Positions 644-26,871 of a stretch of DNA of 32,000 bases are shown here, in pieces (the first letter of the stretch is position 1; each line of letters opens with the position of its first letter). Made by a program: the position numbers and the translations under genes. The stretch comes from Polynucleobacter necessarius (GTDB taxonomy: Bacteria > Pseudomonadota > Gammaproteobacteria > Burkholderiales > Burkholderiaceae), in assembly GCF_900095195.1 (NCBI RefSeq), contig NZ_LT606950.1, positions 90,001-122,000 of the forward strand. Direction: 5' to 3'. The notes beneath the pieces were generated by a model. That model was not told where the DNA came from. It was given only the letters and a program-made list of their open reading frames with translations, and ran no database searches.

Positions 644-2187
644 GGGTGGCATTGAAAATAGATCCCAGTCATCTGATTGAGCATCTCAATTCTCTAGTGG
701 ATGCATCGGCAAAGGTAAGTGCCGATAGTCGCCAAATTCGAGCTGGAGATATCTTTTTTGCATATCCGGTAGGACATGGCAAGGCGTTGCGCGATGGCCG
801 TCAGTTTATTGATGCCACATTGGCGAACGGCGCTGCAGCAGTAGTGTTCGATCCACTGGGTTTCGAACACTATTTAAATTACTCTCAATGTTTTGCTGTT
901 GAAAATCTTGCGGATAACGTAGGCAGGCTCTGTGCTGATTGGTACGATGAGCCAAGCAAGCAATTAAAAATGATTGGCGTTACCGGAACAAACGGTAAAA
1001 CCAGTATTACTCAATGGCTGGCTAAAACGTTAAACCAGCCAAACCATCGTGTAGCGGTTTTAGGTACTTTGGGAACCGGCTTTCCCGGGTCATTAGAAAA
1101 AACTGGATACACCACTCCAGATGCACCAAAACTCCAAACTCAGTTAAAGGATCTGTTAGTTGCTGGTGCGAAACAGGTGGTGATGGAAGTTTCTTCTCAT
1201 GCACTACATCAAGGGCGAATTGGTGGCACTTGGTTTAATTGCGCCATATTTACAAACTTGACGCAAGATCACCTCGATTACCACGAGAGCATGGCAAATT
1301 ATGCTGAGGCTAAGGCAAAGCTATTTAATCAAACTGGCCTAGAGCATGCTGTAGTGAATTTGGATGATTCTTTTGGTCGCAAATTAGCCATGAGTCTGTT
1401 GGCTCGAAAAGATTTGCAGGTATGGGCATACGCCCTAAACAAAGACACATTTAACGATTTTGAAAAATTTGGTAATCGCCTGCAGCGCATCTATGCAAGT
1501 AATAGTGTCTTCAATGGCACGGGGTACAACACACTATTTACACAAGAGGGCTTTGATTCTGAGACTTTGCATGTCCCGCTGTTGGGCGAATTTAACCTCA
1601 GTAACGCATTGGCAGTTTGGACGGTCTTGTTGACTCAAGGAATTTCTGGAAATGAGGCTGGCAAGCGAGTAAGCCAATTGCAGCCCGTTGTTGGTCGAAT
1701 GGAATTGGTTGCTTTTGGAAAAAATCCGAAAGCGGATAGTCCGTTAGCAATTGTTGACTATGCCCATACTCCGGATGCACTTGAAAAAACATTAGAGTCT
1801 TTACGCCCTATTGCAGACCAACGTGGTGGAAAGTTGTGGTGCGTATTTGGCTGCGGAGGGGATCGCGATACTGGTAAGCGTGCGCAAATGGGCGCGGTTG
1901 CTGCAAGTTTGGCGGATCAAGTAATTGTTACCAGCGATAACCCCCGCTCAGAGGATCCACAAGCCATTGCAGCCATGATTCTCCAGGGTGTAGGTTCAAA
2001 AACCGCTTATGTGCAAACGATTGTTGACCGAGCGGCAGCAATCATGACGGCGATTCGTCATGTGGATGGGCGCGATATTGTTTTGGTTGCAGGTAAGGGG
2101 CACGAAACTACCCAAGAAATCCATGGCAAAAGTTTTGATTTTTCGGATCAAGAGCATATTCGTCTTGCTGGGGGAGGATTGATCTGA
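640..2187 (+). CDS. murE: UDP-N-acetylmuramoyl-L-alanyl-D-glutamate--2,6-diaminopimelate ligase
   Basis: 515-aa ORF with the Mur-ligase P-loop GVTGTNGKTS and the MurE-typical SDNPRSEDP motif. It occupies the canonical dcw position between ftsI and murF. Confidence 0.95.
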   Translation: MRVALKIDPSHLIEHLNSLVDASAKVSADSRQIRAGDIFFAYPVGHGKALRDGRQFIDATLANGAAAVVFDPLGFEHYLNYSQCFAVENLADNVGRLCADWYDEPSKQLKMIGVTGTNGKTSITQWLAKTLNQPNHRVAVLGTLGTGFPGSLEKTGYTTPDAPKLQTQLKDLLVAGAKQVVMEVSSHALHQGRIGGTWFNCAIFTNLTQDHLDYHESMANYAEAKAKLFNQTGLEHAVVNLDDSFGRKLAMSLLARKDLQVWAYALNKDTFNDFEKFGNRLQRIYASNSVFNGTGYNTLFTQEGFDSETLHVPLLGEFNLSNALAVWTVLLTQGISGNEAGKRVSQLQPVVGRMELVAFGKNPKADSPLAIVDYAHTPDALEKTLESLRPIADQRGGKLWCVFGCGGDRDTGKRAQMGAVAASLADQVIVTSDNPRSEDPQAIAAMILQGVGSKTAYVQTIVDRAAAIMTAIRHVDGRDIVLVAGKGHETTQEIHGKSFDFSDQEHIRLAGGGLI

Positions 2188-3629
2188 TGACCATGATGTC
2201 CCTTGCTCAAGTTCATGCGATGTTGCCTGGAAGCGTTTTATTGAATATTGCTCCAGAGGCGGCAAGTGCACTATCGCTCATAAGAGTTGGGACTGATAGT
2301 CGCCAAATTGATGCTGGCGAATTATTTGTAGCATTATCTGGTGAACGTTTTGATGCCCACGACTTCTTGGAAGAAGTTGCCAATAAAGGTGCTCGAGCTG
2401 CGGTCATTAGCAACAAAGAGGGATGCCCCGTCAATTTACCGGCTGTATATGTCAGTGATACACGAGTTGGATTGGGTAATCTTGCAAAAGCTTGGCGCGC
2501 AATACATAAAATTCCTTTGGCTTTGGTGACCGGTAGTAACGGGAAGACTACCGTTAAAGAAATGATTGCAGCAATTTTTAAGGCTGCTGTTGGCGAAAGT
2601 CACACCTTGGTGACGAAAGGTAATCTCAATAACGATATTGGCCTACCTTTAACCTTACTCAAGTTGCGCTCAAGTGATCAATTGGCTGTTGTCGAGTTAG
2701 GGATGAATCATCCTAGCGAGACAGCGCAATTGGCGGTAATTGCTCAGGCAAATATTGCTCTGATTAACAATGCTCAACGTGAGCATCAAGAATTTATGGC
2801 TACGGTTGCTGCAGTAGCGGAGGAGCATGCGGATGCCATTCGTACCTTACCTCAAGGTGGAGTGGCGGTATTCCCGGCGGACTCCGATTTCACATCCGTT
2901 TGGCGCAAAGCTGCCGACTCAAGAAAAGTGATTGATTTTGCCTTGCCATCTTCTTCGTCTGATGTGGCAGCCTCAGTAACTGGCCGTCTACTCAATAACG
3001 GTAGTGTAGAAATTGTGACCGATGGCGGAAGTATTCAGGTTCAACTCAATACGCTTGGTAACCATAATGTACGCAACGCTTTAGCTGCAACAGCTGTAGC
3101 TTTAGCGGCAGAAATTTCTCTCGAGAAAATCAAGCAAGGCTTGGAGTCATTTGTTCCAATAAATGGCCGCATGCAGGCAAAGAAAATTGAGTTAAACGTT
3201 GCTTTGATTGATGACAGCTATAACGCGAACCCAGATTCTGTTCGTGCAGCAATTGATGCATTGAAGCAGTCCGGAACTCCTGCCTGGCTGGTATTGGGTG
3301 ATATGGGTGAAGTTAGCGATCAGGGGCCAGAGTTCCACCGTGAAGTCGGCTCCTATGCGGCAGAGCAAGGGGTTGCCAAACTTTTTGTAATAGGTGATCT
3401 TTGCCAGTTTGCTCTCAAAGGGTTTCAGAAGATTGCAAAAAATAATCCCGCCTTTGAGGGGCTCCACTTTGCGGATGTGGATAGCTTGATTGCCCACTTG
3501 CGTATGGCAATGCAGACGCAATTGGCTAATAGCAATAGTCATTTAAATATTTTGGTGAAAGGTTCTCGTTTTATGCGCATGGAGCGTGTAGTGCAAGCCT
3601 TGTTAGAGGAGGCGAAAACATGCTCTTGA
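2187..3629 (+). CDS. murF: UDP-N-acetylmuramoyl-tripeptide--D-alanyl-D-alanine ligase
   Basis: 480-aa ORF with the Mur-ligase P-loop VTGSNGKTT. It has a TGATG overlap with the murE stop and sits in the dcw position before mraY. Confidence 0.95.
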
Positions 3630-4789
3630 TCTTGGCGCAATGGCTGCAAGATGATTTTGGATTTTTGCGGGTCTTCAACTACATCACTTTTAGAGCTGTG
3701 ATGGCAACTGTTACCGCTTTGTTGATTGGCTTGGCTGCTGGACCATGGGTCATTCAAAAGCTGACTGCACTCAAAATGGGTCAGGCTGTACGTACAGATG
3801 GCCCTCAAACCCATTTGGTGAAATCGGGTACGCCAACAATGGGTGGCGTACTTATTCTGATTGGTATTTTTGTCTCTTGCATGCTTTGGGCCGATCTGAG
3901 TAATCGCTTTATTTGGATTGTCATGATTGTTACTTTTGGTTTTGGTGCAGTCGGCTGGGTGGATGACTACCGTAAAGTAGGTCGTAAAGATCCCAAAGGA
4001 ATGGCTTCGAGAGAGAAGTTTTTCTGGCAAACACTCATTGGCTTATTTGCTGCAATCTACTTGGCATTCTCGGTATCTGAGGTGAACAACCTCAAGGTAC
4101 TCCAGCTATTTTATGAGTGGTTGAAGAGTGGCTTTGCTTTAGATCTTCCCGCAAAAACTGATCTCTTGATCCCTTTTATGAAAGAAGTGAGTTATCCATT
4201 AGGAATGATGGGGTTCATCAGCCTGAGTTATTTGGTGATTGTTGGTAGCAGTAATGCGGTGAATTTGACCGATGGTCTGGATGGTTTAGTAATCATGCCC
4301 GTGATTTTGGTGGGTGCAGCGCTTGGTGCGTTTGCGTATGTCATGGGTAATGCTATCTACGCCAAGTACTTACTTTTCCCTTATATTCCGGGCGCTGGCG
4401 AATTGATGATCTTCTGCGGCGCCATGGGTGGGGCAGGACTCGCATTCCTTTGGTACAACACCCATCCTGCACAAGTATTTATGGGTGATGTAGGAGCCTT
4501 AGCGCTCGGTGGTGCATTGGGCACTATTGCGGTAATTGTGCGTCAAGAAATTGTTCTCTTTGTGATGGGCGGTATTTTTGTGGCAGAAACACTTTCCGTT
4601 ATGTTGCAAGTGTTCTGGTTCAAGCGCACGAAAAAGCATTTTGGCGAAGGACGCCGCATTTTCCGAATGGCTCCTTTACATCACCATTTTGAATTGGGTG
4701 GTTGGAAAGAAACACAAGTGGTTGTGCGTTTCTGGATTATCACCATTCTGTTAGTTCTGATTGGCTTATCTAGCTCGAAATTACGTTGA
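3620..4789 (+). CDS. mraY: Phospho-N-acetylmuramoyl-pentapeptide transferase
   Basis: 389-aa polytopic membrane ORF with the MraY motifs [12 protein letters not shown] and APLHHHFE. It overlaps the murF 3' end by 10 nt. Confidence 0.95.
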
Positions 4790-4801
4790 GCCTAAGAATC
4801 C

Positions 4802-6424
4802 ATGCTTACTTTAGAAAATACTTTCGCTAATCCTGTTTCAGTATCTGATGCTGGCTATCAAGCGCCCAGTCGATTCCTTATTTTGGGATTAGGTGAGTCT
4901 GGTGTTGCCATGGCGAAATGGTGCTTACGTAATGGCGCAACAGTGCGTCTTGTTGATACACGTGAGCGAGGAGCATTCTCCGATAAGCAACTCGCATGGC
5001 TTGCGGAGCTTGAATTCGCAGGTTTAAAAGATGCTCACTTTGGCCTACTCAATGAGTCCTTATTAAACGAAATTGATGTGATTGGCATTAGTCCAGGGCT
5101 ATCTCCATCACAAGAGCCGACACAATCATTTTTAGCGAGAGCCCGCAAAGCCCGCATCGATGTTTGGAGTGAAATTGAATTCTTTGCGCGTGCGATTGCG
5201 GCGATATCGCGCATGGCGCAGGCAAAAGAATCCAGTTATTCATCATCGGTACTTGCTATCACTGGTACAAATGGCAAGACAACCACAACGGCACTCACTG
5301 GACAGCTTTGTGAAAGGGCTGGCAAGATAGTTGCAGTTGCGGGAAATATTAGTCCTGCAGCTCTCGATAAGTTGATGACTTGTTTGAACGATGCTGATCA
5401 ACTCGAAGATATGCCCAATATTTGGGTATTAGAGCTCTCGAGTTTTCAATTAGTCTATACCGATTCATTAAATGCTACAGCAGCTACCGTTCTGAATATT
5501 ACGCAAGACCACCTAGATTGGCATGGTGATATGTCTGCTTATGCACAAGCAAAAGCAAAAATATTTGGGGCCGACACAGTTTGCATTTTGAATCGCGATG
5601 ATCCAGCAGTTATGGGTTTACTGGCAGATGATCAAAGGGTAGAAAAAGCGCTTATTACCTTTGGCTCCAATCGTCCTGATGAGCAGGGTGCATTTGGAAT
5701 TGAGCACGATTTACGTGCCGGGGGCATTGATTGGTTAGTGTGGGCAGAAGTGGATGAGGATCTCAAGCCCAAACCAAAGCATCGTCGTAAGTTAGCAGCA
5801 ATTGAAGAGGACGAGCCATTACGCTTGAAGCGTTTAATTCCGGCAGATGCTTTGCGCATCCGCGGGCGCCATAATGCGTTAAATGCGCTTGCTGCGCTTG
5901 CTCTAGCGCGGTCAGCGAACTTGCCGATGAATGTATTGCTGCATGGTTTACGCGATTACCAGGGTGAGCCACATCGTGTGCAGAGTATTGCGATCGTGAA
6001 CGATGTTGAGTATGTGGACGATAACAAGGGTACAAATGTTGGCGCAACGGTCGCTGCTCTGAATGGTCTGGGAAGTAATGAGGCAAGCAAGCGTATCTGG
6101 CTCATTGCTGGTGGCGATGGCAAGGGTCAAGACTTTAGTCCACTACGAGAGCCAGCACTGCGATTTGTGAAGGGTGTTTTCCTCATTGGTAAAGATGGCG
6201 AAAAAATATCACAAGCATTGGGCAATAGCATCCCATGTATTAATAGTGGCAATTTGCAGGCTGCAGTCCAGGCCGCTGCTGCTCAAGCGGTTTCTGGGGA
6301 CTTAGTTTTGTTATCTCCTGCATGCGCTAGCTTAGATCAGTTCCGAGATTATAAAGAGCGTGCACATGTATTCGCTTCGGAAGTAGAAGAGTTGAGCATG
6401 CGATTCGAAGGGGTTCAGGCATGA
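4802..6424 (+). CDS. murD: UDP-N-acetylmuramoylalanine--D-glutamate ligase
   Basis: 540-aa ORF with an N-terminal Rossmann-like GLGESG and the Mur-ligase P-loop ITGTNGKTTT. It sits in the dcw position between mraY and ftsW. It contains an in-frame charged insert at about 5740-5830. Confidence 0.93.
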   Translation: MLTLENTFANPVSVSDAGYQAPSRFLILGLGESGVAMAKWCLRNGATVRLVDTRERGAFSDKQLAWLAELEFAGLKDAHFGLLNESLLNEIDVIGISPGLSPSQEPTQSFLARARKARIDVWSEIEFFARAIAAISRMAQAKESSYSSSVLAITGTNGKTTTTALTGQLCERAGKIVAVAGNISPAALDKLMTCLNDADQLEDMPNIWVLELSSFQLVYTDSLNATAATVLNITQDHLDWHGDMSAYAQAKAKIFGADTVCILNRDDPAVMGLLADDQRVEKALITFGSNRPDEQGAFGIEHDLRAGGIDWLVWAEVDEDLKPKPKHRRKLAAIEEDEPLRLKRLIPADALRIRGRHNALNALAALALARSANLPMNVLLHGLRDYQGEPHRVQSIAIVNDVEYVDDNKGTNVGATVAALNGLGSNEASKRIWLIAGGDGKGQDFSPLREPALRFVKGVFLIGKDGEKISQALGNSIPCINSGNLQAAVQAAAAQAVSGDLVLLSPACASLDQFRDYKERAHVFASEVEELSMRFEGVQA

Positions 6425-7692
6425 ACTTAAGAGAAAAATTCTTTCCACAAAACCGTCTCGGCTTAGATCGATTCTGGAATTTCTCTAAAGGTGGAATTGA
6501 TAATTTCCGCACAGGATTACGCGATGCGGTATCGGGTGTTGAGCAGACGCGCTCGCGCATGATGGAGTATGACCAACTGTTAGTTTGGGCAGTTTTATCA
6601 CTCATGTTGATTGGTTTGGTAATGGTGTATTCCGCCTCAATTACTTTGGCAGATAGCCCCAAATACGCCAATTACAGTAGTAATTACTTTTTAGTTCGAC
6701 ATTTAATCTCATTGGTTATTGCCATTGTGGTGGGCATTTGGGCGTTCAAAATTCCATCTAAGGTTTGGGATCGTTATTCGCCCGTGATTTTTGGATTTAC
6801 CGTTCTATTGCTTATTTTGGTTCTGATTCCTGGAATTGGTAAGGGTGTTAATGGGGCTAGACGTTGGATTTCGTTGGGAGTCATGAACTTTCAACCTTCC
6901 GAGTTGATGAAGTTTGCCGCCGTGATATTTGCCGCAAGCTATACCGTACAACGCCAAGAGTATTTGCATTCCTTCGCCAAAGGAATGCTGCCAATGGGTA
7001 TTGCGGTTGCTCTCGTGGGCGGTCTCTTGATGAAAGAGCCCGAGATGGGGGCGTTCATTGTGATTGCCATCATTGCATTTGGAATTTTGTTTCTTGGTGG
7101 AATCAACGCCAAGCTGTTTGGAGGTCTAGTCGTTGTTGGAATTGCAAGTGCCGTCGCAATCATTGCGCTTTCTCCGTTCAGACAAAAGAGAATTATGGCT
7201 TTTGTAGATCCATGGCAGACAGAGAATGCGGCTAATAAAGGGTATCAATTAACCCATTCGCTAATGGCGTTTGGACGAGGCGAGTGGTTTGGCACAGGTC
7301 TTGGAGGTAGTGTCGAAAAGTTGCATTACTTACCTGAAGCGCACACCGATTTCATCATGGCAGTGATTGGCGAGGAGCTGGGATTTGTTGGTGTCGTCGT
7401 CATGATTTTCCTGTTTTACTGGATTGTGCGTCGCGCATTCTTAATTGGTCGCACCGCTTTGCAATTGGATTGTAGTTTTGCAGGCTTAGCAGCGAAAGGT
7501 GTAGCCATCTGGATTGGTTGGCAAGCCTTTATCAATATGGGGGTGAATTTGGGACTGCTTCCAACGAAAGGATTAACCCTGCCGTTAGTGAGTTATGGCG
7601 GCTCAGGAATTTTGATGAATGCAGTAGCAATTGCGATGTTGTTGCGAATTGATTATGAGAATCGTATTTTGATGCGCGGAGGGAAGTTGTGA
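6421..7692 (+). CDS. ftsW: SEDS-family peptidoglycan glycosyltransferase / lipid II flippase FtsW
   Basis: 423-aa multi-TM ORF with the SEDS C-terminal motif PTKGLTLPLVSYGGSG. It has an ATGA overlap with the murD stop. Confidence 0.93.
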   Translation: MNLREKFFPQNRLGLDRFWNFSKGGIDNFRTGLRDAVSGVEQTRSRMMEYDQLLVWAVLSLMLIGLVMVYSASITLADSPKYANYSSNYFLVRHLISLVIAIVVGIWAFKIPSKVWDRYSPVIFGFTVLLLILVLIPGIGKGVNGARRWISLGVMNFQPSELMKFAAVIFAASYTVQRQEYLHSFAKGMLPMGIAVALVGGLLMKEPEMGAFIVIAIIAFGILFLGGINAKLFGGLVVVGIASAVAIIALSPFRQKRIMAFVDPWQTENAANKGYQLTHSLMAFGRGEWFGTGLGGSVEKLHYLPEAHTDFIMAVIGEELGFVGVVVMIFLFYWIVRRAFLIGRTALQLDCSFAGLAAKGVAIWIGWQAFINMGVNLGLLPTKGLTLPLVSYGGSGILMNAVAIAMLLRIDYENRILMRGGKL

Positions 7693-8762
7693 CCAAACCC
7701 TCAATATTAGTGATGGCAGGTGGCACCGGCGGGCATATTTCCCCGGGCCTTGCTGTCGCTGAATATTTACGAATTTGCGGTTGGAATGTGTCTTGGTTGG
7801 GTAATCAAGCCGGTATGGAGTATCGCTTGGTTAAGTCATGCGATTTTCCATTTGAAGCAGTGAAGTTTGGCGGTCTACGAGGTAAGGGTCTTAAGGCAAA
7901 ACTGATGTTGCCATTGAATTTGGCGCGCGCATGTTTTCAGAGTTGGCAGATTATGCGTCGCTTAAAACCGTGCGTTGTTTTGGGTATGGGTGGATACATC
8001 ACTTTTCCAGGTGGCTTGGTTAGTAAATTATTAAAACGTCCATTAGTTTTGCATGAGGCAAATTCAGTGGCGGGAAGTGCCAATCGTGCGCTTGCCAAAA
8101 TTGCTATGCGTGTCTTAACGGGCTTTCCTAATACGATGGATAAAGCAGAGTGGACGGGCAATCCAATACGAGAAGAATTTGATCACATTCAAAAACCAGA
8201 AGTACGCTACGAGCAACGTAACGGACCACTATCTATCCTGGTAGTTGGTGGCAGCCTAGGCGCTGCTGCCTTGAATGAAAATATTCCCGCGGCATTAGCG
8301 TTAATTTCTGAAAACAGTCGGCCGAGCGTTATTCATCAAGCGGGTGATAAACACCTAGTAGATTTACAAAATCGATATGCAGAGTTTGGTGTCAAGGCAG
8401 ATGTTCGGCCTTTTATAGACGATATGCCAACCGCCTATGCTCAAGCCGATTTAGTGATCTGCCGATCTGGTGCGATGACCGTTTCAGAATTGGCGGCATG
8501 TGGTGTGGCTTCTTGCTTGATTCCATTTCCGTACGCAATTGATGATCATCAAACTGCCAATGCTAAATTCTTGGCGGATGCTAATGCGGCTGTGCTATTA
8601 CCCCAAAGCGTAATGAATCCGCGAGATTTAGCTCTAATGATTCAAAACTTTAATCGCAATGACCTGAAAGAGATGGCTATGCGAGCTCATGCGCTCGCTA
8701 AGCCGCACGCAACACAGCGCGTTGCAGAAGTATGTGCAGATTGCGCAGGAGTAGGGGTATGA
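7689..8762 (+). CDS. murG: UDP-N-acetylglucosamine--N-acetylmuramyl-(pentapeptide) pyrophosphoryl-undecaprenol GlcNAc transferase
   Basis: 357-aa ORF with a GTG start in a GTGA overlap with the ftsW stop. It carries the N-terminal GGTGGH motif ([15 protein letters not shown]). Confidence 0.95.
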
Positions 8763-10195
8763 AGCATATCGTTCAACAAATTCACTTTGTGGGTATTGGC
8801 GGTGCCGGGATGAGCGGTATTGCTGAGGTCTTATTGAACTTAGGATATCAAGTTGCCGGTTCTGATTTGTCTGAAAGCATCACAACAAGGCGCCTTAAAG
8901 AATTGGGTGCGGTGATTCATATTGGGCATGACCAGAAAAATGTCGGCACCGCCGAGGCGGTGGTCATTTCTACTGCGGTAGCTGGCAATAATCCAGAAGT
9001 TTTGGCAGCTCGTGCTGCAAAGATTCCGGTCATTCAGCGTGCGGTCATGCTGGGTGAGCTAATGCGCTTAAAGCAGGGTATTGCTATCGCCGGAACCCAC
9101 GGCAAAACAACCACAACCAGCTTAGTTGCTTCTGTATTGGCAGAGGGTGGTTTGGATCCCACCTTTATCATTGGCGGCAAGCTGAACTCTGCTGGTGCGA
9201 ATGCACGCCTTGGTCGAGGTGACTTTATTGTGGTTGAGGCCGATGAATCCGATGCCTCATTCCTGCAGCTATTCCCAGCGATGGAAGTGGTGACCAATAT
9301 TGATGCTGATCATATGGACACCTATCAGCATGACATGGCAAGACTGAAACAAGCATTTGTTCAATTCATTCAGCGTATGCCGTTCTATGGGGTTGCAGTG
9401 CTCTGCATTGATGACGTTAATGTACGTGACATTGTTCCGTTTGTTTCGCAGCCTGTATTGCGTTATGGGCTCTCCGAGGACGCGGATATTCGTGCGAGTA
9501 ATGTGCGTGCCGATGGGACACGGATGCACTTCACGGTTGATCGTAAGACAATTCGTCGTCATGGAAATAAACCGGGCCCACTCAATATCACCTTGAATTT
9601 ACCTGGCTTACATAACGTTCGTAACGCTTTAGCCGCTATTGGTATTGCGACAGAATTGGGTGTTGGTGATGAAGCCATCATTAAAGCCTTGTCTGAGTTT
9701 GGTGGTGTTGGACGTCGATTCCAGCGTTATGGCGATATTCCTTTGGCGTCTGGTGGTAGCTTCACCCTGATTGATGATTACGGCCACCACCCTGTAGAGA
9801 TGGCCGCAACGTTGGCAGCAGCACGTGGTGCATATCCGGAACGCCGTTTGGTGCTGGCATTTCAGCCACATCGCTACACCAGAACGCGCGATTGCTTCGA
9901 TGAGTTTGTGCAGGTATTGCGTAACTTTGACGCCTTGGTACTAACAGAGGTTTATCCGGCGGGTGAGGCAAAGATTCCAGGAGCGGATGGTAAGAGTTTG
10001 ATGAAAGCCACCTTAGCAGAAGACAAAAAATCTAAAGCATTGCTCAATTCTGCTGCGGTGGCATTTGCAAATAATGTAGCCGAGATGCCAGAAAAATTAA
10101 GCCAGGTTTTACAAGATGGAGATGTATTAATCACGTTGGGCGCAGGTTCCATTTCAGGGTTGCCTCATGCCTTAGCGGAGGCGAAGAATGTCTAA
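8759..10195 (+). CDS. murC: UDP-N-acetylmuramate--L-alanine ligase
   Basis: ORF track frame 8732..10195. I place the start at ATG 8759, which forms an ATGA overlap with the murG stop and gives [23 protein letters not shown]. The P-loop is [10 protein letters not shown]. Confidence 0.94.
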
Positions 10196-11195
10196 GCAAG
10201 ATATGAGCCTCTGGGGTGATCGCGTAAAGCTACGCTTGGCGAATTTGAATGTTAAGGCGTTCGGCCGTGTAGGTGTTTTGCTGGGTGGGAAATCTGGCGA
10301 GCGTGAGATTTCATTGATGTCTGGCAATGGTGTATTACAGGCATTGCTATCCAAAGGTGTTGACGCTCATCCGTTTGATCCGGGTGTACGCAATCCAACC
10401 GAGTTGACGTCCGAAAATTTTGATCGCGTGTTTATTTCGTTACATGGCCGCTATGGTGAAGATGGCACCATTCAGGGTTTATTGGACTTACTGGAATTGC
10501 CATATACCGGTAGTGGTGTCCTTGCTTCCGCCTTATCAATCGACAAAATTGTTACCAAACAGGTTTGGATTAGTAATGGACTATCCACTCCCAAGTTTGA
10601 AGAGTTAACAGCCAATAGTGATTGGAATGCAGTAGTAAAGAATTTGGGTTTGCCACTGATCGTCAAGCCTGCCAATGAGGGTTCTTCTCTGGGTTTAACA
10701 AAAGTGAAGTCGGTAGAAGAGTTGCCTGCTGCTTATCAGCTTGTTGCGGGACTTGATAAAAAAGTGATTGCTGAAGCTTGTATTGTTGGCGATGAGTTAA
10801 CTTGCCCGTTGGTCGGTCAATGGAGTAGCGCAGAAGCTTTGCCCGTTATCAAAATTATCCCGCCTCAAGCTAATTACGATTTTCATAACAAGTATTTCTC
10901 GGATGAGACGCAGTATCTTTGCCCAACAGGACTGCCATCTGAGGTGAATGAGCAAGTGCAAGAGCTTGCTTTGGCAGCCTACAGAGCACTTGGTTGCAGG
11001 ACATGGGGGCGTGCCGACGTCATGTTAGATCAAAAGACTGGCAAACCCTATTTATTAGAAATGAATACCTCGCCAGGTATGACGTCGCATTCGTTGGTGC
11101 CAATGGCTGCAAAGGCAGCTGGTGTCGAGTACGCCGATTTAGTGCTTTGGTTGCTGAGTCAAACGCTACAGCAGAAAGAGGGCGCCCCTGCATGA
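10188..11195 (+). CDS. ddl: D-alanine--D-alanine ligase
   Basis: 335-aa ATP-grasp ORF with [23 protein letters not shown] and [10 protein letters not shown] motifs. It overlaps the murC end by 8 nt. Confidence 0.95.
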
Positions 11196-12049
11196 GTAAT
11201 TTCATGGACCGGTTCGGCGAAATTTTTGCCATGCTGATGTCACCGCTCTGGAATCACCCAGATCGGATGCAAAAGCTCAGCCGTTTCTTGATGCGATGCT
11301 TTGTTGTAATGATGGCTATTGGAATACTGGTGTGGTTAAGTCAACGTCCTGTATTTGCATTAAAGCAAATACAGGTAGAGCCAGTAGCTGGTCAAACCTT
11401 AAAGCACATCAAGAAATCGATTGTGCGACAGCAGGTTTTGGAAACCGTGCAAGGAAATTTTTTCAGTGTTCGCCTTGAGGATGTGAAGCGTGGCTTTGAG
11501 AGTATGCCTTGGGTGCGTCATTCCAATGTTCGTCGTGTATGGCCCAATGGTTTGATTGTGAGTATTGAGGAGCAGAAGCCCTTTGGTACTTGGGGTGGCG
11601 CTGACAGTCATCAACTTATTAATGATCACGGTGAAATTTTTGCTGGCCGTGTTTCGGAAATTGGTGACGACGTGCGCTTGATTGATTTTCATGGCCCCAA
11701 AGATGCAGGTAAAGAAGTCATGAGTCTTTATGAAAAAGCCAATAACTGGTTTAAGCCTTGGGGTTCTGAGGTGACAAGTTTGGCGTTGACTGAGCGATAT
11801 GCATGGCACATCAAGCTCTCCAATGGCATGAGAGTGGAGTTTGGTCGAGACGAGGAAAGCTCCGATAAGACACTAATAGAAGAGCGCGTTGCGAGACTCT
11901 TTAAGTATTGGCCACAAGTACAAGAAAAATTGGCCAACCGAATTGATGCGGTGGATTTGCGGTACGCAAATGGTTTTGCGGTTCATCTTGCCTCAGCAAG
12001 TTTGAAAAAGAGTGATGTAGATAGCAAGAAAAGCGATTTGAAGCAATGA
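11192..12049 (+). CDS. ftsQ: Cell division protein FtsQ
   Basis: Frame of ORF 10994..12049. The start is placed at ATG 11192, forming an ATGA overlap with the ddl stop and giving [12 protein letters not shown]. The protein has one N-terminal TM segment followed by a POTRA/FtsQ-type domain. It lies between ddl and ftsA. Confidence 0.88.
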
Positions 12050-12053
12050 AGGA

Positions 12054-13289
12054 ATGGGAATGAGTAAAGACAATCGCGACCTACTAGTCGGCTTAGATAT
12101 TGGAACTTCCAAGGTGGTTGCTTTGGTTGCGGAATTAGCCCCTGATGGTCAATTTAATGTAGTCGGAGTTGGACAAACTGCGTCAAAAGGCTTGAAGAAA
12201 GGCGTTGTTGTCAATATTGAAGCAACAGTGCAGTCGATTCAGAAGGCGCTTGAAGAGGCGGAGATCATGGCGGATCGCCAGATTGTTCAAGTTTTTACTG
12301 GCATTGCGGGTAACCATATTGTGAGTTTTAACTCGAGTGGCATGGTTGCGATTCGAGACAAAGAAGTTAGTGCGGGCGATGTTGAGCGGGTGCTTGAGAC
12401 TGCAAAGGCAATCAATATTCCAACCGATCAGCAGATTTTGCACATCCTTGTTCAAGAATTCATCATCGATGGGCAAGAAGACGTTCGCGAACCAATTGGC
12501 ATGAGTGGTTTGCGACTCGAAGTAAAAGTTCATATTGTTACGGGTGCAGTCAGTGCGGCACAAAATATTGTGAAGTGCGTACGTCGTTGTGGATTAGAAG
12601 TAAACGATCTTATTTTGCAGCCACTAGCCTCTAGCCTCGCGGTACTAACCGAAGATGAAAAAGAGCTTGGGGTGGTATTGGTGGATATTGGTAGCGGGAC
12701 CACGGATATTGCTATCTATTGTCAAGGGTCGATTCGTCATACCGCAGTGATTCCGATAGCCGGTGATCAAATTACGAATGACATTGCAATGGCATTGCGT
12801 ACCCCCACGATTGATGCGGAAGATTTAAAGATCGCTCATGGCATTGCCCGTCAAGAAATGGCAGACCCAGCAGCCATGATTGATGTGCCGGGGGTGGGCG
12901 ATCGTGAGCCACGTCCTATGTCAAAACAAGCCTTAGCAGCGGTGACCGAGCCACGTGTTGAAGAACTCTTCACTTTAGTGAGGGGGGTGGTTCGGGACTC
13001 TGGTTATGAAGACATGGTTTCTTCCGGAATCGTTCTGACTGGTGGTACTTCATTGATGCCGGGAATGGTTGAACTTGCTGAACAAGTGTTTTTGAGACCG
13101 GCTCGCATCGGCACTCCTGAGTATCGTGGCCATTTGCATGAAGTGTTGCGTAGCCCACGGTTTGCAACCAGTATCGGTTTATTAATGGAAGGTCAAGCGC
13201 AGTTATTGCGCGGTCGTCGTGTTTCTCAATCAGGCGCGTTACAAGGCGTGATCTCGCGCATGAAGGAATGGTTTGCAGGAAATTTTTAA
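12054..13289 (+). CDS. ftsA: Cell division protein FtsA (actin-like)
   Basis: 411-aa ORF with the actin-fold phosphate-1 motif VGLDIGTSKV and the later DIGSGTTD. It lies directly upstream of ftsZ. The alternative start at ATG 12060 cannot be excluded. Confidence 0.95.
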   Translation: MGMSKDNRDLLVGLDIGTSKVVALVAELAPDGQFNVVGVGQTASKGLKKGVVVNIEATVQSIQKALEEAEIMADRQIVQVFTGIAGNHIVSFNSSGMVAIRDKEVSAGDVERVLETAKAINIPTDQQILHILVQEFIIDGQEDVREPIGMSGLRLEVKVHIVTGAVSAAQNIVKCVRRCGLEVNDLILQPLASSLAVLTEDEKELGVVLVDIGSGTTDIAIYCQGSIRHTAVIPIAGDQITNDIAMALRTPTIDAEDLKIAHGIARQEMADPAAMIDVPGVGDREPRPMSKQALAAVTEPRVEELFTLVRGVVRDSGYEDMVSSGIVLTGGTSLMPGMVELAEQVFLRPARIGTPEYRGHLHEVLRSPRFATSIGLLMEGQAQLLRGRRVSQSGALQGVISRMKEWFAGNF

Positions 13290-13329: not shown

Positions 13330-13335
13330 AGGAGG
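13330..13335 (+). promoter_or_regulatory. Shine-Dalgarno sequence (AGGAGG) of the ancestral ftsZ start
   Basis: A perfect AGGAGG lies 4 nt upstream of ATG 13340. That ATG opens MEFEMLD, the conserved N-terminus of Burkholderiales FtsZ. Confidence 0.7.
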
Positions 13336-13339
13336 GTAT

Positions 13340-14679
13340 ATGGAATTTGAAATGTTAGATTAAGAAACAGCTGGCAAAACCATTATTAAAGTGGTTGGTG
13401 TCGGTGGAGCTGGTGGCAATGCTGTCCAGCACATGATCCGTCGTGGTGTTAATGGCGTAGAGTTCATTTGCATGAACACCGATGCTGGCGCATTACAGCG
13501 CTCTGAGGCATCTGTGAATTTGCAACTGGGCTCTAGCGGATTAGGTGCTGGTGCAAAACCTGAAATCGGTGCAGCTTCTGCGGAAGAAGCGCGAGAACGC
13601 ATTGCGAATGTATTGCAGGGCGCTCATATGGTGTTCATCACCGCTGGCATGGGTGGCGCGGCACAGGAACTGGTGCTGCTCCAATCGTTGCTCAAGTAGC
13701 GATGGATATGGGCATTCTGACGGTTGGTGTGATTAGCAAACCATTTGACTTTGAAGGCGTGAAGCGTTTAAAAGTTGCGGAAAATGGAGCCGCTGAACTT
13801 GAGTCATATGTGGACTCATTGATTGAGGTTCTCAATGAAAAACTATTTGATGTCATGGGTAAGGATGCTGAGTTTGATAAGGCATTTGCGTGTGCCGATG
13901 ATGTATTACACAACGCGGTTTCTGGTATCGCCGAGATCATCAATGTTCAGGGTTTAATCAACGTTGACTTTGAAGACGTGAAGACTGTAATGGGTGAGCA
14001 GGGTAAGGCAATGATGGGTACAGCGACTGTTTCTGGTATGGATCGTGCACGCTTGGCCGCTGAAGCGGCAGTAGCCTCTCCATTGCTTGATGGTGTTGAT
14101 TTATCAGGCGTACGTGGTGTGTTGGTCAATATTACTGCTAGCCGTTCATTGAAGCTTTCAGAAACTCGCGAAGTGATGGCTGCAATCCGTGGCTACGCAG
14201 CGGATGATGCAGCCGTAATCTTCGGTACTGTGTATGACGAGAGCTTGGGTGACGCATTGCGTGTAACGGTAGTTGCTACAGGATTAAATAAGCCACAAGC
14301 TTGCAAAGCAAATCAACCTGAAGTAGTCTGGAGACAAGCTACTGGTACGCATGATGCTATTCCTACCATGGCTGATCTCAATACGTTTGCTTTAGCAAGC
14401 GCATCTGCTGCAATCAGTAAAGTAAGCTTAGATTCAGCATTGAATACTATTTCTGGCATGGCTTTAATGGGTTCAGCAGGCGCACCTGCGGCAGCACAAC
14501 CAGCAAGCAGTGGGGTTGACTACAGTCAGTATGATTTGCCACGCGTGTTTCGTAGCTTTCGTGAAATGGTTGCTGCACCTACATTAGGCGCAGATAGCTC
14601 TCCTCAAGCAAAAACCTTGCTGGATAAAGGGGCCGATTACTATGAAATCCCTGCGTTTTTGCGTAAGCAAGCAGATTAA
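13340..14679 (+). pseudogene. ftsZ: ftsZ, disrupted by an in-frame TAA at codon 8 (13361-13363) and a 2-nt GC insertion (about 13658-13659) inside the GGGTGTG tubulin signature
   Basis: ATG 13340 gives [34 protein letters not shown]... in a single frame. ORF 13391..13699 reads ...[21 protein letters not shown]. Removing GC from GGTGGC[GC]GGCACAGGAACTGGT restores [33 protein letters not shown], which joins ORF 13702..14679. The conserved C-terminal peptide DYYEIPAFLRKQAD is present. Confidence 0.88.
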
Positions 14680-14791: not shown

Positions 14792-15292
14792 ATGATTGCT
14801 GTTGGACAAAAATTACCAAATGCCACGCTGTATGAATTTATTAACGAAGAGACTGAGGGTTGTTCTTTAGGTCCAAATGCTTTTGAAGTCGAAAAACTAA
14901 CGGCAGGTAAAAAGATTGTGATTTTTGCGCTTCCAGGCGCATTTACACCAACCTGCTCTGCAAAGCATGTTCCAGGCTATGTTGAGCACGGCGATGCCAT
15001 TAAAGCCAAGGGCGTTGATGAAATTTGGTGTATTTCTGTGAATGATCCTTTTGTAATGGGTGCATGGGGACGCGATCAAAAGGTGGGAAACAAGATTCGT
15101 ATGTTTGGTGATGGTGATGGTGAGTTCACCAAAAAAGTGGGTTTAGAGTTGGATTTAACGGCACGCGGTTTGGGTGTTCGCTCAGATCGTTATGCCATGA
15201 TTGTGGAAGATGGCGTCGTTAAAAGCTTAGATCGCGAAGCTCCTGGCAAATTCGAAGTCAGTGATGCCGCTTCTATATTAAAAAAGCTGTAA
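14792..15292 (+). CDS. Peroxiredoxin, Prx5 / AhpC-TSA family
   Basis: 166-aa ORF with the peroxidatic-Cys motif PGAFTPTCS. Its position between ftsZ and lpxC matches other Burkholderiales as I recall them. Confidence 0.88.
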   Translation: MIAVGQKLPNATLYEFINEETEGCSLGPNAFEVEKLTAGKKIVIFALPGAFTPTCSAKHVPGYVEHGDAIKAKGVDEIWCISVNDPFVMGAWGRDQKVGNKIRMFGDGDGEFTKKVGLELDLTARGLGVRSDRYAMIVEDGVVKSLDREAPGKFEVSDAASILKKL

Positions 15293-16260: not shown

Positions 16261-16803
16261 TCACTTTGGCTGATTGCGAAGTAAGCGCTCGATGGTTTTT
16301 CGCAATTCAGAATCTGGTGCAAGTTTTTCTAGCAACTCTTCCCATGATTTTTTAGCAATGGCATTGAGTCCTTTGGGTCTCTGGTGTGCTTCGTTGCTGA
16401 TGCGTGGCCTTACCTCCCAGGATGCACTCGATGGCTTAATCTTGACTTTAACGGTGCTGCAGCTCAGACCTAATTTAGCTAACTCATTGATTAAAGTAGG
16501 TAAATTTTGCTGAAGGCGGTTTGCAGTGCTAGCGCTTTGAACAAGCAAAAACAGATCATTTTGGCCGCTGGAGCGCCAGCCGGCTTCGATTTTCGAGCTG
16601 AGGTGCTCCAGCCCTACTTTTGCCAACGTTAACTTTACGGTGGCTTTGAGTTTGGCAAGATCTTCTGTTTTGGCCAAAATCCCCCCAAGACCATTGGATT
16701 CGCGTAGGTAATCCAGCCATTCATGGGCTACATGCTTGCGAGACGGTTTGGGTGTAAAGTTCATAAAAAATGGGCTTGCGAGTGATAAACTCAAGGTCTT
16801 CAT
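16261..16803 (-). CDS. DUF721-like (DciA-family candidate) protein, divergent from secA
   Basis: 180-aa ORF, or 167 aa if it starts at the ATG whose complement lies at 16764. The assignment rests on size and the conserved position between lpxC and secA. The family match was not verified by HMM. Confidence 0.55.
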
Positions 16804-19584: not shown

Positions 19585-19744
19585 CAATCAAATTCTTAAT
19601 CAGTTTATGTGTATGGCTCAGATTTATCTGCCATTTTTCTTGGTGGAATCTCTAGTCAGTTTTATGCACTGAAAATAGCTAGATCTGTCATGATTTGAAG
19701 ATATAAAAGTACTTCCTATTTATTCATGCTGCTAAGGGGATGTT

Positions 19745-20202
19745 ATGGCCGTAACGTTTACGCTTAACGGTAAGACCGTTAATTTGATGGTGATGCAGAA
19801 ACGCCAATTCTTTGGGTCTTACGAGATCATTTAGATATCACTAGTCCGAAGTATGGTTGCGGTGCGGCGCTTTGTGGTGCCTGTACTGTTCATCTAGATG
19901 GAGCAGCCATTCGTTCGTGCTCGACCCCAGTATCTGCGGCTGCTGGTAAAAAAGTGACTACCTTGGAGGGTTTGCCTGCTAAGGTCTGGAAAGCATTGCA
20001 AGATGCCTGGACTGAATTTGATGTGCCTCAGTGCGGTTACTGCCAAACTGGCCAGATGGTGTCCGCCGCAGATCTTTTAGCTAAAAACAAGAAGCCGAAT
20101 AGCCATGATATTAAGAATGCCATGAGTGGCAATATTTGTCGTTGCGGAGCCTATTCCCGGATTGAAAAGGCAGTTAAACGTGCTGCTGATAAATTGGCCT
20201 AA
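19745..20202 (+). pseudogene. (2Fe-2S)-binding small subunit of an IorA/aldehyde-oxidoreductase-type molybdoenzyme, with a 1-nt deletion frameshift at about 19786
   Basis: ATG 19745 gives MAVTFTLNGKTVNL, then runs into a stop. Shifting by -1 at TTG|GAT gives DGDAETPILWVLRDHLDITSPKYGCGAALCGACTVHLDG..., continuous with ORF 19954..20202 (QCGYCQTGQ, CRCGAY cluster motifs). An AAGGGGA ribosome-binding site lies upstream. Confidence 0.85.
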
Positions 20203-20212
20203 GGGGATAAAT

Positions 20213-22326
20213 ATGAACACTCATTAAAAAACCAAAGCCGTCGTCAGTTTATCCAGCCAAGTACTGCTCTTGGGGGAGCTTTTGTACTTGGTATGTATCT
20301 ACCACTAACCAGCGAAGCTGCAACGGGAATTGCTGAAAAGCCAGCATTAGCAAATGCTTGGACTCAAATTACCCCAGGCAATCAAATTACATTGATTTGT
20401 GCTCGTTCAGAAATGGGGCAAGACGTATACACATCTATGCTTGCATTGCTTGCCAAGGAAATCAATCTACCGCTTTCCATGATTAAGTTTGAAATCGCTG
20501 GTGTTGCCCCGGTTTATATCAATGCGATGTTGGGTGGCCAAATTACTGGCGGCTCTACCTCGGTACGTGAGGCTTTTGACAAGCTCAGAACTGCCGGCGC
20601 AGCAACTCGCTCAGTTCTCGTGCAAGCGGCAGCGCAACGTTGGAATATACCAGTCACTGATTGCAAGGCAATGAATGGCAAAGTCCTCATGCTAGTGGCA
20701 AATCCGCAACCTATGGTGAATTAGCGGCTGACGCTGCCAAATTACCTTTACCAGAGAAGCCAACACTGAAGTCACCGGCCAATTTTATGGTGATTGGTAA
20801 AGAGATAATGCGACGTCTTGATACTCCCGCCAAAGTATCTGGTAAGGCGGTATACGGAATCGATGTCAAGATTCCAGGTATGGCAATTGCATCTCTGGCG
20901 CAATGCCCCGTGATTGGTGGAACACCAAGTGCATATGATGCGAGCGCCGCTTTGAAAGTTTCTGGGGTTCTTAAGGTTGTCCAGATTTCTGATGGCGTGG
21001 CAAGTGTTGGCAAAAGATTTTTATGCGGCGCGCAAGGGAAGAGATGCGTTAAAAATTACTTGGAATGAGGGCCCGAATGCCAATTTGAGTACTGCAGTGG
21101 TGCGTAAATCTCTTGAGGCGGGTTTATCCCAAAAGGGCGCTGTGATCAAAACAGCTGGCAACGTTAGTGCAACTGTCCCGAATGGCAAAGCTCTCAGTGC
21201 GCAATACTTTTTGCCGTATTTAGCGCACTCCACTATGGAGCCTGTTAATTGTTCAGCCGATGTTTCCAATGGCAAGTGCAGAATTATTGGCCCCATTCAG
21301 TTCCAACAAGGCGGCCAAGCTGCAGCTGCAGCTGGCGTGAAGCCGGAGGATGTCACGATTGAGACAACGTTCTTGGGTGGTGGTTTTGGTCGCAAATTGG
21401 AATTGGATTTCATTCGTCAGGCGGCTGAAATTTCAAAGGCTGCGGGCATGCCTGTCAAGATGCTTTGGACCAAAGAAGATGATATTCAGCATGACTTCTA
21501 TCGCCCGACGAGCATTCATAAAGTTGATGGAGTTCTTGGTGCCAATGCTCAATTGAGCACCATGAAAGCAAAAATGGTTTCGCAGTCTGTGACCACCAGA
21601 GCTTTCCCAGGTTTTGTGAAAGATGGTTTCGATCCTTTCATGGTGGAAGGTTCAAACAATCTCACTTATGACATTCCCAATTTGGAAATCACAAACGTCA
21701 TTACCGATACGTGTGTCAGGGTTGGGTATTGGCGTTCAGTCAGTAATGCGTTAAATGCGTTTGCGATTGAGAGCTTTGTGGACGAAGCGGCAACTGCTGC
21801 TAGTAAAGATCCTGTGGCTTTCCGGCTTGCTTCCCTAAGCAAACATCCAAGAGCGAAAAATGTTCTCGAAACCGCTGTGAAGAAATCGGGATACACCGCC
21901 GGTAGCAAACGCTTTGGCGTGGCGCAAATGAAGTGCTATGACATGTGTTCCGCTTGCGTGATCGAGTTAGATACTACGGCACCTGAGACTAGAGTGAAAA
22001 AGATCACATTTGTCTCAGACTGTGGCATTACCGTTCATCCCGATCAAGCTAGAGCCCAGCTTACTGGAGGCGTCATTTATGGATTAAGTGCCGTCTTAAA
22101 TAATGCAATCACCATAGAAAATGGCCGAGTTCAGCAAACAAACTTCAATAATTATCCTAGCTTGCGTCAAAACCAGGTTCCTGTAATTGATGTGCATTTG
22201 ATTCCAAGCCAGGAGAAGCCGGGCGGTTTGGGTGAGGTTGGAGTTCCTTTAGTGGCGCCTGCTCTAGCAAATGCTATTGCTGCAGCCACTGGCAAACGCA
22301 TACGCGAGCTTCCAGTTAAAGTCTGA
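20213..22326 (+). pseudogene. Molybdopterin-binding large subunit (IorB / aldehyde-oxidase beta type), Tat-signal-bearing, broken by four 1-nt indels
   Basis: ATG 20213 (MNTH) hits TAA at 20225. The -1 frame then reads LKNQSRRQFIQPSTALGGAFVLG, a twin-arginine signal. Further breaks are a C missing in CTC|CAT at about 20688 and an extra A at about 21003 (GCA[A]GTG). The fragments 20293..20724, 20661..21068 and 20977..22326 splice into one colinear protein of about 704 aa. Confidence 0.85.
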
Positions 22327-25729: not shown

Positions 25730-26416
25730 CTATGACGAACCGAGTAGATCTTTCTGAATCTTCAGGATTTTTTGGTGCAAGAGATTTACTTCGCCCTCTA
25801 ATGTTGTAAGACTCCCTTGGTTTTGAATGACCACGTCAGCAACAGCAAGGCGATCTTCTCGGGTTGCTTGGGCCTGCAGAACTCTTTCAACTTCCTCTCT
25901 GGGTAAATTGCTGCGCTGCATCACTCTGGTTATTTGGGTCTCTTCTGGGCAATCTACGACTACAAGGAGGTCGATGAGACTGCGCCAGGACATCGATTCA
26001 ATTAGAAGGGGAACAGCAAAGCCTAAATAAGGCGCCCCATGAGCTACCAAGTCCTTTGCTTGCTTGATCGTTTCTTGACGAATCAGGGGGTGTGTAATGG
26101 CCTCCAAGGTTTTTCTGGCATCCGGATTGCCAAAGACCAAGGTCCGCATCTTGGACCTATCTAAAGCGCCGTTGGCATCAATATAGCCCCGACCAAACTG
26201 CATCTCTATGGCTGGAATTGCTAAACCGTGGGGTGCGGTGATCTGATGCGCAATCCGATCGGTATCCACAACTCCCGCCCCGAGCTTGCCAAGTAGATCG
26301 CTCACCACAGATTTTCCTGAGCCGATGCCTCCAGTTAGGCCAACTAGAGGTAATTGACCTTTTAGTCCGCTTAAATCAGATGATTCAGTATGAGTGTTTG
26401 AATGAATTGTGGACAT
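25730..26416 (-). CDS. coaE: Dephospho-CoA kinase
   Basis: 228-aa ORF with the P-loop VGLTGGIGSGKS. It has an N-terminal extension of about 20 aa that overlaps the pilD 3' end by 46 nt. No alternative in-frame start was seen before the P-loop. Confidence 0.9.
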   Translation of the reverse strand: MSTIHSNTHTESSDLSGLKGQLPLVGLTGGIGSGKSVVSDLLGKLGAGVVDTDRIAHQITAPHGLAIPAIEMQFGRGYIDANGALDRSKMRTLVFGNPDARKTLEAITHPLIRQETIKQAKDLVAHGAPYLGFAVPLLIESMSWRSLIDLLVVVDCPEETQITRVMQRSNLPREEVERVLQAQATREDRLAVADVVIQNQGSLTTLEGEVNLLHQKILKIQKDLLGSS

Positions 26417-26871
26417 AACAACTCAATGATGCCAGCAATGGCAAGAAAAGGTCCAAAAGGAATGGCGGATTGTAAGGATTGTTTTTTTACTCTGAGCCAG
26501 AGAAGGCCTCCAATGAGTCCAGTAACCGACGCTATGAAAAGAATGCTTGGCAGGGAGCTTAGTCCAAGCCATGCTCCAAGGGCACCCAGCAGCTTCGCAT
26601 CACCCATGCCAATGGCATTTGGCTTTTTGATCCATCGATAGAGGGTATTTAGGCCCCAGATTAGAAAGTATCCAAATATAGAGCCCAAAATTGCATTTAA
26701 AAAATCTGTAAAACCCAAATTGGGTAAATAGTTTAAAAGGAGTCCTACTGCAGCAAATGGAATGGTGATGACATCGGGTAGCCGAAATGTTAATAGGTCG
26801 ACATAGGCTAGATAAAGCAGTATCAGGATCGCCAGGATATGTACTAAGTCGAACGCAGAAAATGTAAGCAT
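26371..26871 (-). CDS. pilD: Short prepilin peptidase (A24 aspartyl-peptidase domain only, no N-terminal methyltransferase/Cys domain)
   Basis: About 166 aa. Both catalytic-Asp contexts are present (YVDLLTFRLPD and IGMGDAKLLG). Its ATG overlaps the pilC stop in a TGATG. Full-length PilD is about 290 aa. Confidence 0.75.
   Translation of the reverse strand: MLTFSAFDLVHILAILILLYLAYVDLLTFRLPDVITIPFAAVGLLLNYLPNLGFTDFLNAILGSIFGYFLIWGLNTLYRWIKKPNAIGMGDAKLLGALGAWLGLSSLPSILFIASVTGLIGGLLWLRVKKQSLQSAIPFGPFLAIAGIIELLCPQFIQTLILNHLI

Follow-up and report, generated by a model that had tools for sequence, protein, structure and literature searches.

The ftsZ gene of Polynucleobacter necessarius, an obligate endosymbiont of the ciliate Euplotes, is very probably a genuine pseudogene left behind by reductive genome evolution. 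The locus lies in the division and cell wall (dcw) cluster, within a stretch of 32,000 nt (positions 90,001–122,000 of contig NZ_LT606950.1, forward strand) that is referred to here as the window and in whose coordinates positions are given. In almost all walled bacteria, cell division is organised by FtsZ; the exceptions known so far either are ancient (Chlamydiae, Planctomycetes) or concern symbionts in which reduction has gone so far that they reveal little about how the loss came about. The P. necessarius loss appears to be recent: a 1.3-kb ftsZ remnant persists, with only about 1–2% drift since the gene died, and the dcw cluster around it is intact and under selection.

The window proteins LpxC, peroxiredoxin, Ddl, MurD, SecA and FtsA correspond to RefSeq entries of P. 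necessarius on a chromosome of 1,550,368 bp. This species lives as an obligate endosymbiont of Euplotes and has a genome of about 1.6 Mbp with a large number of pseudogenes (PMC5018217). Because pseudogenes are pervasive in this obligate endosymbiont, the loss of an otherwise essential gene is far less anomalous than it would be in a free-living betaproteobacterium.

Lesions of the ftsZ locus and their ancestry

The ftsZ locus contains the following features, all on the plus strand.

13330–13335, plus strand: Shine–Dalgarno sequence AGGAGG of ftsZ, still intact and identical in free-living relatives in the alignment
13340–14679, plus strand: ftsZ pseudogene, a former coding region of 1,340 nt (1,338 nt plus 2 inserted bases)
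13361–13363, plus strand: lesion 1, a TAA nonsense codon at ftsZ codon 8; ancestral CAA (Gln); common to the sister strain (contigs L081 and L083, described below)
13391–13699, plus strand: residual 102-aa open reading frame (ORF) that begins with GTG and corresponds to the N-terminal portion of the tubulin/FtsZ GTPase domain (PF00091 positions 4–121 of 190); without a Shine–Dalgarno sequence; not a gene
13656–13659, plus strand: lesion 2, a 2-nt GC/CG insertion in codon Gly106 of the GGGTGTG GTP-binding signature; window strain only
13697–13699, plus strand: premature TAG in the shifted ftsZ frame after the insertion, as read from the sequence
13702–14679, plus strand: residual 325-aa ORF with the end of the GTPase domain, FtsZ_C, the linker and the C-terminal peptide; without a Shine–Dalgarno sequence

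The region 5′ of ftsZ is nearly invariant across the alignment with relatives. From the ATG at 13340, the frame reads MEFEMLD and then the TAA, past which the same frame continues. At codon Gly106, some 300 nt further on, a 2-nt insertion has changed GGCGGC to GGCGCGGC, so that positions 13649–13671, ATGGGTGGCGCGGCACAGGAACTGG, translate as M-G-G-A-A-Q-E-L and the frame stops at the TAG at 13697–13699. The window thus contains no uninterrupted frame for a whole FtsZ, which is broken by the TAA at codon 8 and by the +2 frameshift at codon 106. Removal of any GC/CG dinucleotide within 13656–13659 restores the frame and joins it to the 325-codon ORF, and the repaired product of 445 aa scores 368.5 bits on the FtsZ equivalog model TIGR00065 (cut-off 295.2). 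The fragments match the Pfam families PF00091 (Tubulin) and PF12327 (FtsZ_C), giving homology over the GTPase and C-terminal domains, and the repaired product is 82–95% identical to 80 Polynucleobacter FtsZ loci. A first-pass annotation, made from the DNA letters, had reported the strong Shine–Dalgarno sequence, the start codon with its short MEFEMLD frame and TAA, the insertion inside GGGTGTG with the ensuing TAG, and the repair to 445 aa, and each of these is borne out. RefSeq holds no FtsZ protein for the locus, and NCBI gene calling has only the unnamed 102-aa fragment. The ATG at 13702–13704 that opens the 325-codon ORF arose by an AAG-to-ATG (Lys-to-Met) change, giving AMDMGI in the window as against AKEMGI in the sister strain and the aligned relatives. 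Because this change is unique to the window, the start codon of the distal ORF is attributable to drift and is not a conserved internal start.

The relatives comprise a scan of one genome per species, which yielded 80 Polynucleobacter ftsZ loci, one of them (L068) cut off at a contig end. The gene is intact in all 80 (L001–L080), as well as in the additional locus L085. Codon 8 is CAA in 76 of the 77 full-length ftsZ genes parsed and CAG in the remaining one, and L023 and L080, which fall outside these 77, likewise have an intact ftsZ that encodes Gln at this codon. Every intact relative examined reads the GGGTGTG signature in frame; L048 and L050 have exactly GGTGGCGGCACAGGAACTGGT where the window has GGTGGCGCGGCACAGGAACTGGT. 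The presence of Gln8 and of an in-frame signature in the relatives indicates that the TAA (a C-to-T change) and the +2 insertion in the window are both derived. A comparison of this kind had been proposed in the first-pass annotation for identifying the ancestral codon 8, and the relatives show the glutamine codons counted above and no insertion. Two oddities appeared among the loci retrieved. An ftsZ locus of Polynucleobacter type (L072, CALRTW020000005.1; 85% identity over the full length) occurs in a metagenome-assembled genome (MAG) that bears the label ‘Rhizobium sp. Q54’, probably through a binning or labelling error. The MAG KR_bin-2157 has two contigs (L016 and L047), each with a full-length Polynucleobacter ftsZ (447 and 446 aa), most likely reflecting a strain mixture and not a paralogue.

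Contigs of a sister strain were found through the 90%-identity cluster mate of the window Ddl: ERZ27248707 (L081) in ENA, and SRR32119647, SRR8208349 (L083) and SRR14234079 in Logan. Each of these four contigs matches the window at 98.6–99.2% identity, and wherever they overlap they agree with one another at 100%. We therefore assign them to a single sister strain within the same symbiont clade; this strain has no entry in NCBI. The ftsZ gene is covered by L081 and L083 (98.6–99.0% identical to the window), which were compared with the window base by base. The sister strain, derived from other read sets, carries the same TAA at ftsZ codon 8. As the TAA is common to an independently assembled sister, the nonsense mutation is real and older than the strain split.

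The remaining ftsZ lesions are strain-specific, and the gene decayed separately in each strain. The sister gene lacks the GC insertion, and the same codon is GAT (Gly106Asp; L081 9456–9458). It has deletions of 1 nt (window 13459), 8 nt (13470–13477), 90 nt (14209–14298) and 7 nt (14346–14352), the first two of which turn the conserved segment EFICMNTD into SSFTD. The GGGTG(T/S)G tubulin signature (T4 loop), which is GGGTGTG in the intact relatives, is broken in both strains, reading G-G-A-A-Q-E-L in the window and G-D-G-T-G-T-G in the sister. Neither strain can produce a full-length FtsZ from the dcw locus. The first-pass annotation had described two independent lesions; both are indeed inactivating and derived, but their ages differ, the TAA predating the strain split and the GC insertion being window-specific and unreplicated. 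The codon for Gly106 has been hit in both strains, by the GC insertion in the window and by a GGC-to-GAT double substitution in the sister. This double hit could be coincidental, could mark GGCGGC as a mutational hot spot or could go back to one complex lesion, common to both strains, that was resolved in two ways.

Two other genomes labelled P. necessarius, LT606947.1 (isolate PPGSP2, 1.89 Mb, L023) and LT606951.1 (1.93 Mb, L085), keep an intact ftsZ of 446 aa, which in PPGSP2 is evolving conservatively (dN/dS about 0.03). Both share with the window the genus and species label and the gene order around ftsZ, but their genomes are larger and less eroded than the 1.55-Mb chromosome of the window. 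The loss of ftsZ is confined to the 1.55-Mb clade and does not extend to every genome labelled P. necessarius. LT606947.1 and LT606951.1 are presumably Euplotes endosymbionts as well.

Selection on ftsZ and its neighbours

Nonsynonymous and synonymous substitutions (N:S) were counted between the window and the sister strain, for which synonymous divergence is about 0.02–0.04.

ftsZ: 16N:7S, pN/pS 0.71, P = 0.29 against neutrality (fits neutrality)
11 pooled neighbours: 26N:55S, pN/pS 0.14, Fisher p = 0.0017 versus ftsZ
lpxC: 0N:8S, pN/pS 0, P = 8e-6 against neutrality
murD: 2N:10S, pN/pS 0.06, P = 2e-5 against neutrality
ftsA: 1N:7S, pN/pS 0.04, P = 3e-4 against neutrality
ftsW: 4N:6S, pN/pS 0.20, P = 0.013 against neutrality
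ftsQ: 4N:3S, pN/pS 0.36, P = 0.17, not distinguishable from neutrality

Purifying selection on ftsZ is no longer detectable since the strain split. The dcw genes murE through ftsA, taken together, are under purifying selection, and for the ten tested non-ftsZ genes pooled neutrality is rejected at P of about 1e-19. Substitution density follows the same division, with 17.2 substitutions per kb in ftsZ versus 4.7–9.4 in 11 intact genes. Seven indels separate the window from the sister over their shared 13 kb; five are in ftsZ, one is in the peroxiredoxin gene prx and one is intergenic, with none in the other 11 genes.

Between pairs of free-living Polynucleobacter, ftsZ shows dN/dS of 0.007–0.034. 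When the window ftsZ is compared with that of its closest free-living relative (L001, dS 0.64), dN/dS is 0.041, as against about 0.03 between free-living pairs. This low long-term value indicates that the neutral phase has been short, of the order of 1–2% synonymous divergence, and that the loss of ftsZ is recent. An attempt to date the inactivation from shared derived replacements (10 in ftsZ versus 2–5 in neighbours) was set aside as uninformative, because the long, constrained stem branch (dS about 0.3) would alone yield about as many.

The sequence of events began with a C-to-T change that converted the Gln8 codon from CAA to TAA in an ancestor shared by at least two symbiont strains. The gene then drifted neutrally, with the window strain gaining the +GC frameshift and the sister gaining Gly106Asp and the 1-, 8-, 90- and 7-nt deletions. 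Of the two outcomes that the first-pass annotation had put forward, genuine loss or a poor-quality locus, the evidence decides in favour of genuine loss: the TAA recurs in the sister, the sister has five lesions of its own and ftsZ evolves neutrally. We therefore consider it highly likely that the locus is a true pseudogene.

The window retains the neighbouring division and cell-wall genes listed here.

8–643, plus strand: C-terminal end of ftsI, with the transpeptidase domain; the N terminus lies beyond the window, as do murA and murB
640–11195, plus strand: murE, murF, mraY, murD, (ftsW), murG, murC and ddl, full length, with end-to-end NCBIfam matches above cut-off
6421–7692, plus strand: ftsW, 423 aa, intact; TIGR02614, 402 bits, positions 1–356 of 357; under purifying selection
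11309–12049, plus strand: ftsQ, intact; POTRA_1 and FtsQ_DivIB_C domains, NF008043; start uncertain (246 or 270 aa according to gene callers)
12060–13289, plus strand: ftsA, 409 aa, intact; TIGR01174, 471.8 bits end to end; WP_114663455.1; under purifying selection

The genes for lipid II synthesis and the septal synthase that are kept in the window are therefore murE, murF, mraY, murD, ftsW, murG, murC, ddl and ftsQ, together with the C terminus of ftsI. The same dcw genes are called intact in the sister strain, and no indels separate the two strains in them. The strong constraint on ftsA (1N:7S) despite a dead ftsZ is notable and unexplained, and the count for ftsQ (4N:3S) may mean that this gene is starting to relax. 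A 351-aa ORF with a TTG start (10994–12049, plus strand) overlaps the end of ddl; only its C-terminal 246–270 aa or so are FtsQ, and the extension is an ORF-calling artefact and not a fusion.

Gene decay around ftsZ is general, with fragments of an oxidoreductase gene, pilB and pilD in the window and a frameshifted prx in the sister. The molybdopterin-binding oxidoreductase (MoCoBD_1/MoCoBD_2; 19585–22326, plus strand) consists of at least three ORF fragments (20293–20724, 20661–21068 and 20977–22326), preceded by about 700 nt without an ORF, and looks like a pseudogene. The type IV pilus genes are fragmented over 26371–28334 (minus strand). They include a 167-aa piece of a pilD-type prepilin peptidase (Peptidase_A24; 26371–26874) and a 166-aa piece of a PilB-type ATPase (27834–28334, minus strand) that covers only profile positions 4–153 of 370. 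Between these two pieces, at the expected site of pilC, is about 1 kb without an ORF of at least 90 aa. The prx gene beside ftsZ (14792–15292) is unbroken in the window, where it encodes 166 aa (WP_114661632.1). In the sister (L081 10496–10995), loss of 1 nt at window position 14972 divides it into pieces of 82 and 84 aa and makes it a strain-specific pseudogene; the strains differ in prx by 5N:1S. A 180-aa ORF between lpxC and secA (16261–16803, minus strand) could be assigned to no family, showing at most a weak Flg_hook match below threshold, and differs by 5N:0S between the strains.

Alternative explanations and a proposed division without FtsZ

Several points weigh against the reading of ftsZ as a genuine pseudogene and against what we build on it. 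The GC insertion is seen in one assembly only, and exact-protein look-ups (Ddl; the 411-aa and 409-aa versions of FtsA) gave no positional record of an independent assembly of the window strain. The per-gene substitution counts are small. The FtsZ-independent mechanism set out below, and its link to morphology, are inference only. Finally, LT606947.1 and LT606951.1 keep an intact ftsZ, and if their cells are also elongated and multi-nucleoid, loss of ftsZ would not be the primary cause of that morphology. Cluster look-ups placed the proteins of the window strain on a single NCBI contig only, and exact scans of JGI metagenomes for the sequences bearing the GC insertion and the TAA returned no match, a result that is uninformative because the symbiont lives inside ciliates.

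Sequencing or assembly error, with ftsZ intact in the organism and both lesions spurious, would draw its strength from the unreplicated GC insertion and from the source, a single assembly of an uncultured symbiont. A dinucleotide insertion outside a homopolymer is not a typical platform error. Moreover, the TAA is also present in a sister that is about 1% divergent and comes from other read sets, and the sister ftsZ, with its five further lesions, reads the same in two separate samples. Across the 11 neighbouring genes, about 11 kb in all, not one indel separates the two assemblies, so that neither can be called prone to error in this region, and sequencing errors would not yield a neutral N:S ratio and a raised substitution density confined to ftsZ (and prx). 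This explanation is barely conceivable; it is effectively refuted for the TAA and makes no difference in the case of the GC insertion, on which the conclusion that ftsZ has been lost does not depend. It is also very improbable that the locus still makes FtsZ by recoding, through read-through of the stop or re-initiation at GTG 13391 combined with ribosomal frameshifting, or as two cooperating fragments. The perfectly conserved Shine–Dalgarno sequence and upstream region would suit such a scheme, as would the in-frame GTG 13391 and ATG 13702 that open the 102-aa and 325-aa ORFs. However, no Shine–Dalgarno sequence precedes 13391 or 13702 and no slippery heptamer lies at the insertion when the sequence is read directly, and the split falls within the GTP-binding T4 loop. 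The N:S ratio of ftsZ fits neutrality, unlike that of every clearly functional neighbour, and the sister has Gly106Asp in the GTP loop, the lost EFICMNTD segment, the 90-nt deletion and the 7-nt frameshift, which indicates that no conserved product is maintained.

The lesions might instead be real and FtsZ be supplied from elsewhere, whether from another chromosomal ftsZ or ftsZ-like gene or from a protein encoded by the host. The present analysis covers only 32 kb of the chromosome, and organelles provide a precedent for host-encoded FtsZ. Against such a source, ftsZ occupies a single dcw position in every long-contig Polynucleobacter genome, and the sole bin with two matches is a MAG in which the second match lies on a 2-kb contig. 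No full-length FtsZ from the 1,550,368-bp chromosome is found among the best 120 of 8,000 FtsZ matches, although a divergent copy would be missed in this way, and a genome in the process of losing genes is unlikely to have acquired a paralogue. The symbioses between Euplotes and Polynucleobacter are said to have been described by Boscaro and colleagues in 2017 as recent and repeatedly replaced, which would argue against evolved protein import. We regard an outside supply of FtsZ as unlikely and consider that the cell quite probably has no other FtsZ.

With ftsZ read as a genuine pseudogene, and because the symbiont still multiplies, we infer that its division must be FtsZ-independent and proceed without a Z-ring. 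Division would most likely rely on peptidoglycan synthesis, septal or lateral, that the surviving FtsW/FtsI-type machinery carries out together with FtsA and FtsQ. Taken with the penicillin sensitivity that has been reported for the symbiont (PMC5018217), the retention of FtsW, FtsI, FtsQ and FtsA and of the lipid II pathway points to a constriction driven by peptidoglycan synthesis. Such division would be inefficient (‘leaky’), which would fit the elongated, multi-nucleoid cells that have been described for P. necessarius and for which the genus was named in 1987. We offer this mechanism and its link to morphology tentatively, as a proposal that at best has an even chance of being right. A bolder version would hold that the 1.55-Mb clade is a naturally FtsZ-less, wall-bearing, penicillin-sensitive betaproteobacterium that divides with FtsA, FtsQ, FtsW and FtsI and without a Z-ring, and that the loss of FtsZ directly causes the elongated, multi-nucleoid cells; we consider it possible but rather doubtful. 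If it were true, the clade would be a recent proteobacterial counterpart to Chlamydia, relatives with an intact ftsZ (the free-living ones, LT606947 and LT606951) would serve as built-in controls, and FtsA would have an essential FtsZ-independent function. The state of the locus makes it testable how a proteobacterium divides with only FtsZ removed, what FtsA does without FtsZ and whether the ‘many nucleoids’ morphology is a division defect that the host environment tolerates.

Comparison with known FtsZ-less bacteria

Insect symbionts with highly reduced genomes are known to have lost ftsZ, and extremely reduced betaproteobacterial ones, such as Ca. Tremblaya, also lack the gene. The first-pass annotation had listed the rare FtsZ-less lineages and knew of none in the Betaproteobacteria, which, going by Ca. 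Tremblaya, was too strong. No discussion of a P. necessarius ftsZ pseudogene was found in open-access texts, reviews or citing papers, a search that did not extend to Boscaro et al. 2013 (PNAS) and 2017 (Nat Ecol Evol). The sequence is publicly available and its pseudogenes were analysed by those who published it, so an earlier report of the lesion may exist.

The closest parallel is Ca. Endolissoclinum faulkneri, a tunicate symbiont of 1.48–1.51 Mb that has no ftsZ and no ftsZ pseudogene left (Kwan & Schmidt 2013; PMC3851785). Like P. necessarius, it is an obligate intracellular symbiont with an eroding genome of about 1.5 Mb, most peptidoglycan and shape genes kept and an abnormal morphology, and it lacks functional FtsZ, as P. 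necessarius probably does (PMC3851785). The loss in E. faulkneri is old and has left no remnant, whereas P. necessarius has a remnant of 1.3 kb that can be aligned base for base and is decaying in two strains. E. faulkneri has been called the largest genome without ftsZ outside the Chlamydiae and Planctomycetes; the P. necessarius chromosome is slightly larger (1.55 Mb versus 1.51 Mb) and would slightly extend the upper genome size for ftsZ loss outside the Planctomycetes–Verrucomicrobia–Chlamydiae (PVC) bacteria (PMC3851785). The main text of that paper, as distinct from the genome list in its Table S1, does not mention Polynucleobacter.

Division genes have also been lost piecemeal during the reductive evolution of another obligate symbiont, Baumannia (PMC4196230). 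In Baumannia from GWSS, FtsZ and MinCDE are still present, and FtsA, ZapA and FtsQBLWIN are gone (PMC4196230). The order of loss is reversed in P. necessarius, where ftsZ is dead and FtsA, FtsQ and FtsW remain, along with FtsI or at any rate its C-terminal part.

The Chlamydiae, like the Planctomycetes, divide independently of FtsZ, in a peptidoglycan-dependent process based on MreB, PBP2, FtsI, FtsW, FtsQLB and FtsK (PMC12283558). They have no functional FtsZ, as is probably true of P. necessarius, and they resemble it in keeping peptidoglycan genes together with FtsW, FtsI and FtsQ, in living inside cells and in being sensitive to penicillin (PMC12283558, PMC5018217). This likeness is one of outcome and not of shared ancestry, and on the P. 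necessarius side it is known from the genes of the window, which does not include mreB. The Chlamydiae are also not known to have FtsA. They lost ftsZ anciently, whereas P. necessarius lost it recently (1–2% synonymous divergence) and keeps ftsA under strong purifying selection. Loss of FtsZ in an eroding endosymbiont is of a known kind; what is unusual in P. necessarius is that the loss is recent, legible and replicated in two lineages, in a dcw cluster that is otherwise intact.

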